Of a DNA stretch of 64,000 nucleotides, positions 39,065 through 50,070 are shown in pieces. A program made the position numbers and the translations under genes. Each line of letters starts with the position of its first letter. Within the stretch, counting starts at the first letter, position 1. Location of the stretch: the NCBI GenBank assembly GCA_951406725.2, contig OX597827.1:22382001-22446000 (forward strand), read 5' to 3'. The notes beneath the pieces were generated by a model. The model was not told the DNA's origin and did no database searches. It saw nothing but the letters and a program-made list of their open reading frames with translations. The DNA is from Octopus vulgaris (Eukaryota).

Positions 39065-39321
39065 GTACGTTTAAATATTTGTTGTGCAAGATTTTTTATG
39101 TGAAGTCGTGTGTTGAAACAGATATTGTTATATTTCGGAATGGTCGAACGTATATAAACAGAAGATACAAATATTAAAGGCATCCCCCCACATACACACA
39201 CTAAATAAACATAGACGCACATAGAGATATAAGCATGCGCAAATGAAGACATACAATAGAAATACAAAATGGCTGACGGTTAGTAAGGAGAGACACAAAT
39301 AAGAAAGAAGAAAACAAAGGA

Positions 39322-39361
39322 CCACTGATGCGGTCACAGGAGTGTGACGAAAGAACTCTGG
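39322..39361 (+). ncRNA. Minimal hammerhead-like fold (A9C core variant)
   Basis: CCA-CTGATGC-G-GTCAC AGGAGT GTGAC-GAAA-GAAC-TC-TGG. Confidence 0.45.
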
Positions 39362-39498
39362 CCGAAATAAGATTAAGATTAATGTAAAAAATAAATAACA
39401 CTGAAGCAAAATAACACCAAATATATAGTGCGTGAGTTTCTATTGTCTAAACTGGCAATATGACCATTCCGAAATATAACAATATATATATGTAGATA

Positions 39499-41662: not shown

Positions 41663-41728
41663 GGTCCCGGGTTGATTCGGGGTTAACCACAGTAAATAAG
41701 GTACTCAATACATAGCAGAGTAAAATTA

Positions 41729-41851
41729 ATTTATTATATAGAAGGAGCTTCTACAGGACTAGAACTGTTTCATTCAAGAGAAATCTTCAGGAAGCCTGAA
41801 GATTTCTCTTGAATGAAACAGTTCTAGTCCTGTAGAAGCTCCTTCTATATA

Positions 41852-41857
<6 letters not shown>
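41729..41857. repeat. Perfect palindrome, 63-bp arms, 3-nt loop
   Basis: 41729-41791 is the exact reverse complement of 41795-41857. Confidence 0.95.
41747..41795 (-). ncRNA. Type I hammerhead ribozyme
   Basis: GCTTC-CTGAAGA-TTTC TCTT GAAT-GAAA-CAG TTCTAGTC CTG-TA-GAAGC; canonical core, GUA site. Confidence 0.75.
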
Positions 41858-41933
<76 letters not shown>

Positions 41934-43867: not shown

Positions 43868-44023
43868 ATTTCAGCAAAATAATTAAGATTCAAATGAATT
43901 CAAATGAATTCAAATGAATATGGTACTTAACTTAGATGCACCAGAATTCTTTATGGTATTAACCATAAAATAATGTTGGGTGATTATAACCAAGGAAAAA
44001 AAGCAACAAGAATGGATTAGTAG

Positions 44024-44110
44024 TTTAGTACAATTGTTTCGTACTAAGAACATTTTATTTAAAGCTACAAATATTGCAGCAAATGCAATGTCCAGTATTC
44101 ATCAGCTAAA
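44024..44110 (-). ncRNA. Type I hammerhead ribozyme (left arm)
   Basis: TTTAG-CTGATGA-A-TACT...AGTA-C-GAAA-CAATTG-TA-CTAAA; canonical core, palindromic stem III. Confidence 0.8.
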
Positions 44111-44190
44111 TCATATATATGTTTTCCAAACATCCTAGATTCTCTATATACACATAGATTCTCTAGGATGTCTGGAAAACATATATCTGA

Positions 44191-44278
44191 TTTAGCTGAT
44201 GAATACTGGACATTGCATTTGCTGCAATATTTGTAGCTTTAAATAAAATGTTCTTAGTACGAAACAATGTGTACTAAA
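44191..44278 (+). ncRNA. Type I hammerhead ribozyme (right arm)
   Basis: TTTAG-CTGATGA-A-TACT...AGTA-C-GAAA-CAATGTG-TA-CTAAA (1-nt insertion in stem III). Confidence 0.78.
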
Positions 44279-44311
44279 CTACTAATCCATTCTTGTTGCT
44301 TTTTTCCTTGG

Positions 44312-44362
<51 letters not shown>

Positions 44363-44584
44363 CATATATACTCTTTTACTTTTACTTGTTTCAGTCATTT
44401 GACTGCGGCCATGTCAGAGCACCGCCTTAAGCCGAGCAAATCCACCCCAGGACTTATTTTTTGTAAACCTACTACTTATTCTATCCATTTCTTTTGTCGA
44501 ACCGCTAAGTTACGGGGACGTTAACACACCAGCATCGGTTGTCAAGCGATGTTGGGAGCAACACAGACACACATATACATACAC

Positions 44585-44642
<58 letters not shown>

Positions 44643-44791
44643 TATATATATAAATCAATAAATGGTGGGGTTATGTTGACCGCACGTGGAGAAATGATAG
44701 GCAAGGAAAAATTATAAAAAGGCAGAATGAAGGAAAATTTTAATGAAAATGGGTGTATGGAAAATTTTGAAAAATTAATAAAATATATATT

Positions 44792-44833
44792 AATTCAAAC
44801 CGGTTTTCGTCACAATGTGACTTTTCAAGAATT
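44792..44833 (-). ncRNA. Hammerhead-like fold with TTGAAAA core
   Basis: AATTC-TTGAAAA-GTCAC ATT GTGAC-GAAA-ACCGGT-TT-GAATT; all three helices pair perfectly. Confidence 0.6.
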
Positions 44834-45036
44834 GTAAGGTGGAAAGAAAAAAATTTTTGTTTAATGTTTGAGGAGGGGGAAAAAAGAAAATTACATTGTT
44901 TTTTGCCAAAAAATAATAATAAACATGTACAAAAATTAAAAAATAGGTATTCCGATACATTGTAAAGTCTTTGTGTATCTCGAGTTTAATGATAGTTCTT
45001 GAAAAAATTACCTTGGACGATTGAGATCCATGTGAT

Positions 45037-45080
<44 letters not shown>

Positions 45081-45146
45081 TACGCATACATACATACATA
45101 CATACATACATACATACATACATACATACATACATACATACATGCA

Positions 45147-45180
<34 letters not shown>

Positions 45181-45450
45181 CATACATATATACATACATA
45201 CATATGACAGGATTATTTCAGATTCCGTCTACCAAAACCACTCACAAGGCTTTAGTGGGCCCGAGGCTATAGTACAACACAATTGCCCAAGATGCCACGC
45301 AGTGGGATTTAACCAGGAACTATACGGTCCGTAAGCATGCTACTTACCACACAATCACTCCTATGCCTATAAGTATATATATGTAATTATATATATATGT
45401 ATATATAACATATATGTCATATATATATATGTATGTCAATATATATGTAT

Positions 45451-45511
<61 letters not shown>

Positions 45512-45630
45512 TATGTATATATATTATATATATATTATATATCTATATGCTATATGTATCATATTATATATCTATGTTATATATCTATATTATATAACCC
45601 TATTATGTATCTATATTATATACTTATGTA

Positions 45631-45668
<38 letters not shown>

Positions 45669-45944
45669 CCTATATTATATAAATATATTTTATATGTGTA
45701 TTATATGTATATTATATAAATATATATATATATTAAATCTATATTACATATATATTATACCTATATTCTATATTATATCTATTATATCTATATTCTATTC
45801 ATATATATTATATCTATATTATATCTTTATTATTATATATATATATATGTATAAATATATATTATATATATTATATATATATTATATCTATATATTACAC
45901 ACACAGACAAACTGCCGTTTATATATAGAGAGATATATATATTG

Positions 45945-46222
45945 TCGAGGCGCTATGACCTTGTGGTTAGGGCAGCGGACTCGCGGTTGTAGGGTCGTGG
46001 TTTCGATTCCCAGACTGGTCGTTGTGAGTATTTTTGAGTGAAAACACCTAAAGCTCCACGACGCTCCGGCAGGGTCCCTGCTGTACTCTTTCGCCACAAC
46101 TTTCTCACAATCTTTCTTCTGTTGGCCTGCTTGCTTAGCATTTGAAAGCTAAAAAAGATGCGAAGCGCACTGTGACCAGAGACGTGTAGCAACATCTGAT
46201 AGCCTGGTCGGTCATGGTGATT
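45945..46222 (+). mobile_element. SINE family C
   Basis: GTGGTTAGGGCAGCGGACTCGCGG..GTTTCGATTCCC head; tail matches the reverse of 60499-60620. Confidence 0.75.
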
Positions 46223-46487
46223 ATATATATATATATATATATTTTTGTTATATCTATATTATTTTTATATGATATTTATTATATATATATATATATTATA
46301 TCTATATTATATATATATATTTAATATATGTATATCGAATATATATATATATCATATATATATATATTATATATATATATATTTAATATATGTATATCAT
46401 ATATATATATTATATCTATATTATATATATATAATATATCCATATTATATATGTATATTTATCTATATTATATATATATATATATAC

Positions 46488-46518
<31 letters not shown>

Positions 46519-46698
46519 GATATATATATATTATATATATATATCTATATCATATATATATCATATATATATATATATATATATATATCTATATCATATA
46601 TATATCATATATATATATATATCATATCTATATTATATGTCATATCTATATTATATATATAATATCTACATTATATATATATATATTATATATATATA

Positions 46699-46751
<53 letters not shown>

Positions 46752-46882
46752 TATATATATATTATATATATTATATATATATTTAATATGTACATTATAC
46801 ATATATTATATATATATATTATAACTATGTTATATATATATATATTATATCTATATTATATATATATATTATATGTATATCA

Positions 46883-46935
<53 letters not shown>

Positions 46936-46936
46936 T

Positions 46937-47224
46937 ATACAATTGCAGCGTGGAAGGTGTTTATAAGCCATTTAAGAAACACACAAAAGCCGTTCGATTC
47001 ACTTCAACATTTAAGTTTAATTTGTCAAAATATTTTCGTCGCTAAAATCCGCGACCTGTTCACTGACAAAGTCCGTGCTGCAGCACGATCTTTGTCAGTG
47101 AACAGGTCGCGGATTTTAGCGACGAAAATATTTTGACAAATTAAACTTAAATGTTGAAGTGAATCGAACGGCTTTTGTGTGTTTCTTAAATGGCTTATAA
47201 ACACCTTCCACGCTGCAATTGTAT
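46937..47224. repeat. Loopless palindrome, 144-bp arms, 2 mismatches; each arm has a hammerhead-like fold (47021-47070 minus, 47091-47140 plus)
   Basis: Symmetry centre 47080/47081 (GCTG|CAGC); TTTGTCA-GTGAACA-G-GTCGC..GCGAC-GAAA-ATAT-TT-TGACAAA. Confidence 0.93.
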
Positions 47225-47278
47225 TCGTTTCAGCACACGATCTCAGATCAAATTACTTGCTATGCGAGTACATCTCCG

Positions 47279-47331
<53 letters not shown>

Positions 47332-47341
47332 CTATATTATA

Positions 47342-47396
<55 letters not shown>

Positions 47397-47500
47397 CTGT
47401 ATTATACATATATTATATATATTATATCTATATTATATACATATATATATTACATCTATATTATATATATATTTTATATCCACATCTATATCTATCAATC

Positions 47501-47532
<32 letters not shown>

Positions 47533-47634
47533 TGTATGGGGGGAAAAGAATAATACGCTGCTGAAGGTGGATAAATTTAATTTAATCCACTTCGGAAAAG
47601 AAGATACCCTGAAACGTCCATACTCCCTTCATTC

Positions 47635-47990
47635 AGGTGAAACTACTGGGGTCGACTAGAAAAGCTCAGGCCTTATTCCCTCCAACGCCGCCGTAGCGCT
47701 ACGTCATCTGCAAGATGTGGAAAATATTCCATCAACATTACCCAAATTATGTTGGCATCGCCTTTAAGATACACCTAACACTCGGACCCCGTGCTATCCG
47801 CCCACAACATAAGTCGTCCTCGCATCACATAACAACAATATCTCACCTCAATTGTCCTTGTTCTCTTGAACGTTACACCAAAACACATTCAAGCAGAAAC
47901 AGAAGTCTTTGGACAAAATGCTCCAAAAAATCCCGGATAAATCTCCTACACCCGGATATATCTCCGCACACAATAACTCTTTACTCGAGA
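47635..47990 (+). pseudogene. Decayed CR1/L2-group LINE 3' fragment
   Basis: NYWGRLEKLRPYSLQRRRSA..CKMWKIFHQHYPNYVGIAFKIH, homologous to 51390-51700. Confidence 0.7.
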
Positions 47991-48113
47991 GGGCCATGTT
48001 GTCCGATTCCTGATTTCAATGACTTTGCCAGGTGGCGCTAATAAGTTAGACGAGGGCTGCGCCAATACTGGCCGAAACCTATCAAAGTATCTAAGTATAT
48101 TGTGTGTGTGTGC

Positions 48114-48163
<50 letters not shown>

Positions 48164-48321
48164 CAGGAGTAGCTGCGTGGTAAGAAGCTTGCCTCCCATC
48201 TACATGGTTTGAGGCTCAGTTCCACTGCGTGGCACCATGGACAAGTGTCTTCTACAATAGCTTCCGGCCGACCAAAACCTTGTGAGTGGATTTGGTAAAC
48301 GGAAACTGAAAGAATCCCGTC

Positions 48322-48357
<36 letters not shown>

Positions 48358-48396
48358 GCGTTAGGTATTTATATTAAATATGCACATTGTAAAAGT

Positions 48397-48474
<78 letters not shown>

Positions 48475-49226
48475 TTATTTATTTATTTATATTTTCAAAA
48501 GAAAAAAATTATTTTCGAAATTTTTTTCTCTTAGGTTTTTCACGCTAACTACCTGATAATTTCTTGTTAAGATTCCTTATTAAGAAGTTATCCTTAATTG
48601 TTAAATATATACATATATATATATATATCGATGTATGTGTATATATATTATCTATGTGTATAAGTGTGTGTATGTATGAGTTGTCATATACAACTAACTA
48701 CATATAAACACACACGTATATATATGTATATATTGTTTCTTTTATTCTTTTATTTGTTGCCGTCATTTGACGCAGTCGTGGCGGAACACTGCCTCGAAGG
48801 ATTTCAGTCGAACGCATCGACTCCGAAACTTCTGCATTAAACCTAGTACTTATTCGATCTCTCTCCTTATGCCGAACCGCTAAGTTACGTGGACGTAAAC
48901 GCATTAACACTTGTTGCCAAGCGGTGATGGGAGGGGAACTAATGCATAGACACAGACTCGCACGCGGGCGCGCACACAAACAAATGACGGCCTTCTTTCA
49001 GTTTCCGTCTAGTAAATCCCCTCAAAAGGCTTTGGTCAGCCCGAAGCTACAGTTGAAAACACCCTGTAGGCGCGCGCGCATGTTTTCTGTAAACCTAATA
49101 CGCAAGCATATGAACATACATACACACACACATACATACATACATACATACATACAAGCATACATACATACAAGCATACATATATACATATATACATACA
49201 TACATACAAGCATACATACATACAAG

Positions 49227-49286
<60 letters not shown>

Positions 49287-49338
49287 GTATATACATACAT
49301 GTTCTTGACTCCCCAGACAGAAAATAAGCTTTTTACTC

Positions 49339-49376
49339 ATATTTGATGAGATGAGAATCATCGAAACCGGTAATAT
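49339..49376 (+). ncRNA. Minimal type I hammerhead (C3U)
   Basis: ATAT-TTGATGA-GATGA GAA TCATC-GAAA-CCGG-TA-ATAT. Confidence 0.65.
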
Positions 49377-49755
49377 TTCCTTTATATAAAATTTTAAATA
49401 ACTTAAAATCATTCTAATTAAATTCCTTCTTAAATTGGAATGTCTTACACTTATTTCTGTGCTATTTCTACCCAATTCCTTTATATACATGTGTGTGTGG
49501 ACAAATTTCTTCAAGGAATACCAGATAAGTCACCCATATCTGGATAGGACTCACTCATTCCTTACTCGAATAGACCATGATACCGCAAAACGCGACTAAA
49601 AAGGATTTAGATGATCCTATCAGGCGATGCTATTCAGTCAGACATGGCCAGGACCAATCTTTGGTCAAAACATATCTAAGTCCTTTACAATATTATTATA
49701 GGAAAACAGCACTTACCTAGCATACCTAATCGTTTATATATATATATATATATAA

Positions 49756-49811
<56 letters not shown>

Positions 49812-49827
49812 CTATCTACCTATCTAC

Positions 49828-49862
<35 letters not shown>

Positions 49863-49936
49863 AATATCTATCTATCTATATATATATATATGATATATAT
49901 ATATAATATATATATATATATATGTATGTATATAGA

Positions 49937-49975
<39 letters not shown>

Positions 49976-50070
49976 AACCAAACATGAAAACACAGAAAGA
50001 AAACACAACAACGCGAGGATGTGGAACAAATAAAGTGTTATTGGACGGTCAGGAAAAGAAAGAAAGAAAG

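Follow-up and report, generated by a model that had tools for sequence, protein, structure and literature searches.

Penelope-like elements (PLEs) carry minimal type I hammerhead ribozymes in their pseudo-LTRs (pLTRs). According to the available text of Cervera and de la Pena (2014; PMC4209133), these motifs cleave poorly in vitro and have, as standard features, an extra nucleotide before stem II and a palindromic helix III; a natural form with U3-A8 in the core occurs among them. The available sections of Perreault et al. (2011; PMC3088659) likewise describe U3-A8 as the sole natural covariation of the 3-8 pair and do not name G3-C8. That a G3-C8 swap can partly rescue activity, as an initial reading of the present DNA (the sequence-only reading) had stated, is in print in three papers (PMC11167929, PMC8495972, and PMC9901934): the C3G/G8C double mutant gives back part of the activity of a PLE hammerhead (PMC11167929), no other double change of the core led to rescue in a full pairwise scan (PMC9901934), and the swap appears as an engineered rescue (PMC8495972). 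The G3-C8 form is also reported to work better without C17 (data not shown in that paper; PMC3884650). At the level of whole elements, inverted 5'-truncated copies with a one-sided tail have been described for PLEs (PMC8557442), and for PAc (i.e., Poseidon of Anolis carolinensis; PMC11167929) the sections available report reverse transcription from two internal sites bounding the tail, cutting and extension of both target strands, and a protein that is predicted to form a dimer.

The window analyzed here (i.e., the whole stretch of 64,000 nucleotides from contig OX597827.1 of Octopus vulgaris) contains a loopless 288-bp palindrome, which is real: its arms (46937-47080 and 47081-47224; 144 nt each) abut with zero spacer and disagree at two positions (47088/47073 and 47089/47072). 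It is near certain that this palindrome is a double insertion of the pLTR of a young, high-copy PLE, which we call family A. The insertion target is rich in (TA)n on both sides (46220-46938 on the left and 47283-47537 on the right). The right arm, recognized through a repeat search of the genome, is a tailed pLTR copy on the forward strand (47081-47282); the element had been thought to end at 47224, but the copy continues to 47282. The additional tail of ~60 nt (47223-47282, forward strand), present on this arm only, is likely the stretch between two reverse-transcription start sites (an interpretation taken from the description of PAc in PMC11167929), and its last part (47262-47282, forward strand) is likely the ATG and first 7 codons of the element open reading frame (ORF), the ATG being in frame with the reverse transcriptase (RT) ORF in tandem copies. 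The left arm is an inverted tailless copy of ~142 nt on the reverse strand (46939-47080), delimited by the 3'-end clusters of 307 copies. The tailless arm most commonly stops near element position 142, so that the outermost two base pairs of the 144 were probably contributed by the (TA)n target.

The unit on the forward strand is a dispersed repeat in the 2.8-Gb genome. One search returned 924 candidates (57 scored matches), a further search with the element returned 8,190 candidates (150 scored, many of them 95 to 100% identical), and a 19-mer of the unit has 11,242 exact genomic matches. In long copies, the unit lies ~1 kb behind an ORF encoding RT and a GIY-YIG endonuclease, while in tandem copies it is joined directly to the ORF (junctions L158, L160, L170, and L171). 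The ORF is a 1,025-amino-acid (aa) open frame with YVDD and GIY-YIG motifs; the GIY-YIG domain scores 25.4 bits in Pfam (cutoff, 22.6), and the RT gives a weak Pfam match, seen in relatives, and one weak match in a PDB search. As in C-terminal EN+ PLEs of the Nematis/Neptune type (Craig et al. 2021; PMC8557442), a single ORF leads from RT through a CX3CXXC linker (i.e., the CX2-5CXXC feature of that type) to a C-terminal GIY-YIG domain with CCHH-type residues, and the short linker is similar to that of Nematis when compared by eye. The copies also show the layouts described for these elements in the same source: pLTRs from partial tandems, inverted 5'-truncated copies, and a tail on one side only, which at ~60 nt is longer than the 30 to 40 described. 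Of 10 copies that were reported by the script and picked by hand, 8 have target-site duplications. Unlike the Nematis/Neptune sequences shown in that paper, the RT of family A (L063:2971-6045, reverse strand) reads DKS instead of DKG, and its motifs 3 and 4 are separated by 129 aa (~60 aa in the Nematis rows). An insertion of this length does not fit the insertion-free fingers that are a Nematis/Neptune trait, and our protein tree contains no named references; judged from the protein sequence, family A could possibly represent an unnamed PLE lineage with a fingers insertion. The family A protein has 183 relatives at E values of ≤1e-30, nearly all of them unnamed. Two other kinds of element were ruled out: Naiad/Chlamys elements have an N-terminal endonuclease and no canonical hammerhead, whereas the endonuclease is C-terminal here, and non-LTR retrozymes lack an ORF and are built of monomers in head-to-tail tandem that bear a canonical type I hammerhead, whereas the copies here are solo, inverted, or linked to an ORF.

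Short head-to-head pairs make up at least 31 of 60 loci picked by position (25 of 54 once seven copies of one duplicated insertion are collapsed), so the layout is ordinary for family A and adds no novelty. Among 67 such pairs (again including seven copies of one duplicated insertion), 57 combine a tailed with a tailless arm, 2 have two tailed arms, and 8 have a broken arm. Long versions have kilobase arms, and the same tailed/tailless inversion is seen there with arms of 2 kb. One short palindromic insertion (L265, L267, L302, L303, L307, L308, and L311) was multiplied with identical junctions, apparently within another repeat.

The 3' ends of 307 distinct copies fall into two clusters (element positions 137 to 146 and 197 to 202). 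At the other end, the inferred transcription start is where 14 of 30 position-picked copies begin, and 29 of 49 short copies have a G immediately before it, at a position where C or T stands in the template; one base farther out, G is present in only 3 of the 49. An untemplated G at clustered 5' ends is expected from the copying of a cap. A splice acceptor before the unit was our first reading of this boundary, but the clustered 5' ends and the extra G fit a capped start better. In some insertions the two arms carry loops of different subfamilies (L010, L266, and L282; by eye also L011 and L280). Only such switches of loop type count here, as shared and private differences between arms are uninformative (31 shared and 343 private in 62 pairs). 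Arms of different subfamilies, clustered 5' ends with an extra G, and a self-complementary 4-mer, made up of bases from the very start of the element and common to both arms at the center (47079-47082), together fit an origin from two separate cDNAs. The element RNA would be capped and start ~5 nt upstream of 47081; the element protein would nick AT-rich DNA on both strands; copying of two RNA molecules would begin at a pair of internal sites (~47222 and ~47282) and continue to the 5' ends of the RNAs; and the two cDNA ends would anneal at the 4-mer, leaving a palindrome in which one arm has the tail and the other lacks it. The missing loop would thus be explained by microhomology at the 4-mer, which likely joined the two cDNA ends. 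Two internal start sites bounding the tail, AT-rich targets, and a predicted protein dimer are shared with PAc (Frangieh et al. 2024; PMC11167929), in which the tail is 30 to 40 bp, compared with ~60 in family A. Family A offers abundant natural material on the formation of inverted PLE ends, with a tailed and a tailless arm, sometimes of different subfamilies, and a likely cap-copied G, as well as a small RNA that lends itself to direct testing. The suggestion that the insertion is young stands as far as the copy in the window is of the youngest loop type; the near-identity of the arms, on which the suggestion had relied, dates insertions poorly, since the arms of a pair are in some cases drawn from different subfamilies.

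Each arm contains a minimal type I hammerhead (47091-47140 on the forward strand and 47021-47070 on the reverse strand, the latter with G3 at 47063 and C8 at 47058). In the forward copy, stem I pairs 47091-47097 with 47134-47140 and stem II pairs 47106-47110 with 47119-47123; G12 to A14 occupy 47124-47126, the palindromic helix III 47127-47132, and U17 47133, with the predicted cut at 47133/47134. The proposed hammerhead scaffold is borne out, in that stems I and II form in the minimum-energy fold and the three-way junction of these stems with the palindromic helix III is present; the fold of the whole unit is no more stable than those of shuffles (z = -1.27). The variant core (47098-47105, forward strand) reads G3 U4 G5 A6 A7 C8 A9, with G3 at 47098 and C8 at 47103, and is followed before stem II by one extra G of the kind typical of PLE hammerheads (PMC4209133). 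Its GUGAACA does correspond to a double change of C3G and G8C: the literal core CUGANGA...GAAA...UH is departed from at positions 3 and 8, where G3 and C8 stand instead of C3 and G8, and all other core letters are present. The 10-nt stem III that had been drawn is not tenable, since such a pairing consumes A13, A14, U17, and position 1.1 and is therefore a competing inactive pairing; only the 6-nt palindrome at 47127-47132 can serve as the active helix III. The 10-bp mispairing of this region is the more stable (-3.8 versus -0.2 kcal/mol for the active 6 bp).

The motif shares with the PLE hammerheads of Cervera and de la Pena (2014; PMC4209133) its pLTR position, the extra nucleotide that separates position 9 from 10.1, the G10.1-C11.1 pair, a short palindromic helix III requiring a dimer, and the occurrence of thousands of solo copies. 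It differs in the 3-8 pair, for which the available text reports C3-G8 and a covariant U3-A8 form, and in its stems: those of the Schistosoma families in that paper are 4 to 5 bp (stem I) and 7 to 8 bp (stem II), compared with 7 and 5 bp in family A. It lies ~16 to 65 nt behind the inferred transcription start and ~130 nt upstream of the ORF start. In PAc the hammerhead is also near the junction of pLTR and ORF, but the ORF starts inside it (PMC11167929).

A test set in advance addressed whether G3/C8 is private decay of this copy or the family consensus, and the consensus it is: 89 of 89 first-fetched copies carry it (with U17 in all 89), and genome-wide counts of exact matches with fixed flanks gave 7,728 for the 18-mer around the core (reversed control, 0), compared with 2 for C3/G8. 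The remaining counts comprise G3/G8 (255 copies), G3 with A or T at position 8 (224), and A, C, or T at position 3 with C8 (257; C3 in 11 of the first 100 listed), so that Watson-Crick G3-C8 accounts for 7,728 of 8,466 matches over the patterns counted. The three C3/G8 pattern matches proved to be an inversion junction of family C, a match by chance, and a copy of family A. Among the rows listed from four sequencing runs with four organism labels, no other letter occurs at positions 3 or 8.

The 255 G3/G8 copies are ~9 times the ~28 expected from mirror mutation. This state is found on several subfamily backgrounds and makes up 4.8% of older loop types (128 of 2,677) and 1.2% of the youngest (23 of ~1,875; the youngest counts mix 35- and 40-letter patterns). 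In a tree of 34 ORF-linked copies, all 3 G/G copies fall in the older clade, mixed with G-C copies, and the order of G3/G8 and G3-C8 is not separated. The G3/G8 copies, which carry the ancestral G8, may be relics of an intermediate step; recurrent mutation or recombination would also fit. Since the G3/G8 class was amplified, elements can retrotranspose without pairing of positions 3 and 8. Older family A copies cluster on contig C16 (G000), including 35 of the 128 G3/G8 matches, which suggests local amplification.

Related elements place the core in context. Family B, the sister of family A (57% protein identity), has C3-G8 with C9 in 19 of 19 fetched copies, and A9C recurs in 92 of the first 100 listed of 3,770 matches; this fixed, uncompensated change indicates that the lineage tolerates changes of the core. 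In family C, a third family and an older one, 36 of 40 copies show C3-G8. Metagenome searches gave 72 loci, of which 17 reach the ORF end; in 8 of the 17 the motif is present within 600 nt, the 3-8 pair being C3-G8 in 5 of them and U3-A8 in 3, and 9 have no match, several of these having short flanks. A further U3-A8 case (L090) was seen by eye only, and the antisense strand of the metagenome relatives has no motif match. The descriptor left positions 3, 8, and 9 free and was written after the sequences had been seen; shuffles yielded 0.005 regions per replicate. A first, strict descriptor had missed the motifs of the family B and C types. The 3-8 pair is Watson-Crick in all 11 families with a match (8 from metagenomes and families A, B, and C), the sequences of all three stems vary among these last three families without loss of pairing, and position 17 is U, A, or C, never G, in the 11 matches taken with a palindromic helix III. 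U17 also accompanies C3-G8 (in family B and others) and is thus not specific to G3-C8. In the protein tree, which comprises only the relatives found here, family A is the sister of family B (support, 100) inside C-G relatives; G3-C8 is therefore derived. U3-A8 occurs in two separate parts of the tree, and at least three changes of the 3-8 pair are needed.

With G3/C8 fixed in family A and its relatives having C3-G8 or U3-A8 at the same place, the proposal of a natural compensatory core variant is supported. We read the locus, with a probability of about 0.7, as a short double insertion of PLE ends, each half of which carries a G3-C8 minimal type I hammerhead that likely cleaves itself weakly, as a dimer or with the element protein. 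That the G3-C8 swap was selected as compensatory we consider very probable, and that the family A hammerhead retains self-cleavage seems probable from its sequence. The ribozyme would cut after U17 when two RNAs pair via the 6-nt palindromic helix III, and cleavage would not be needed for each insertion. Several results speak against retained cleavage: none of 30 position-picked copies begins within 5 nt of the predicted cut, as in PAc, whose main template is uncut RNA (PMC11167929); the unpaired G3/G8 class was amplified; family B fixed A9C; and the inactive mispairing of the helix III region is the more stable one.

Three other explanations were weighed. The hammerhead might be dead or dying, its two core changes having drifted to fixation in a master element and being complementary by chance; we hold this to be unlikely, because the other core positions are all canonical, the stems of families A, B, and C diverge and still pair, the Watson-Crick 3-8 pair of all 11 families survived at least three changes on the tree, and G3/G8 makes up 4.8% of older loop types but only 1.2% of the youngest, although the amplification of the G3/G8 class, the fixation of A9C in family B, the absence of copies starting at the cut among the 30 sampled, and the dispensability of cleavage for in vitro insertion in another PLE (PMC11167929) would all agree with drift. 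It is improbable that the fold, including the 3-8 pair, is kept for protein binding or through overlap with an internal promoter and that cleavage is incidental. What is conserved are the letters of the catalytic core and the H17 rule, and a promoter would call for neither, even if the position of the motif ~16 to 65 nt behind the inferred start recalls the pLTRs of Drosophila virilis Penelope and Chlamys-3, which hold the start site and an internal promoter (PMC8557442), and even if the tested PLE hammerhead cleaves only with protein (PMC11167929). A foldback or MITE-type DNA transposon or an assembly artifact with a chance likeness to a hammerhead, as a long perfect inverted repeat without coding capacity in AT-rich surroundings might suggest, is refuted almost completely by the ORF-linked long copies and the survey of tailed/tailless pairs, as well as by the 60-nt extension of one arm, the flanking RT/GIY-YIG ORFs, junctions that differ between insertions, the presence of the unit in four independent runs, and shuffles that almost never give the motif.

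Returning to the weakly self-cleaving compensatory variant, a fuller scenario can be sketched, which we regard as speculative and somewhat doubtful. Family A would then hold the first natural hammerhead with an active G3-C8 pair, reached from C3-G8 via a stage with G3/G8 unpaired, which kept transposing and of which a few hundred copies remain, and two RNAs held by the protein dimer during double insertion might pair through helix III and so switch the ribozyme on.

The layout of the palindrome, the kind of element, and the kind of hammerhead are known; what appears to be new, on sequence grounds, is G3-C8 as a natural core. The change at the 3-8 pair is compensatory, like the natural variant of Perreault et al. 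(2011; PMC3088659), and G3-C8, which is a laboratory mutant in PAc (PMC11167929), is natural in family A. Our literature search found no natural G3-C8 hammerhead; most subscription papers were outside its scope, and Lunse et al. (2017), on dimeric PLE variants, could report one. None appears in the available text of PMC6155905, PMC6765202, PMC7229834, or the preprint 10.64898/2026.07.22.740005. The expectation that standard searches miss the swap is right insofar as Rfam misses the family A motif: on 44000-50000 of the window it gave only sub-threshold miRNA-like hairpin matches, and on the unit alone no hammerhead. However, Rfam also misses the canonical minimal hammerheads of the relatives, so the swap is not the sole reason that such searches fail. 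Search patterns have treated C3/G8 as fixed, and a G3-C8 family of thousands of copies implies that these searches undercount; it would be worthwhile to search again, with no letters fixed for the 3-8 pair, in elements reported to lack hammerheads. The occurrence of three forms of this pair within one PLE lineage is comparative evidence for selection on active-site geometry, which bears on the question of what PLE ribozymes do.

Several further observations concern the surroundings and relatives of the locus. Two other long near-perfect palindromes of the window (44001-44300 and ~41720-41866) also adjoin (TA)n tracts, and a relaxed scan found no hammerhead core in them. Minimal-hammerhead-like motifs with a palindromic helix III are present at 44828 (reverse strand; U3-A8) and at 49343 (forward strand; U3/G8), each probably belonging to another PLE family. 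The metagenome relative L087 has C9 as well, and in another relative (region L085:4972-5030) C3-G8 is accompanied by U15.1-A16.1 within a palindromic helix III, which is likewise a rare variant of the core. Positions 39066-39485 of the window contain a family B insertion with the same inverted tailed/tailless layout, whose hammerhead at 39325 has C3-G8 and C9 in place of A9. Family B itself (L075 to L080) has many near-identical copies, some in tandem arrays, with open frames of 1,310 to 1,312 aa, and looks recently active.
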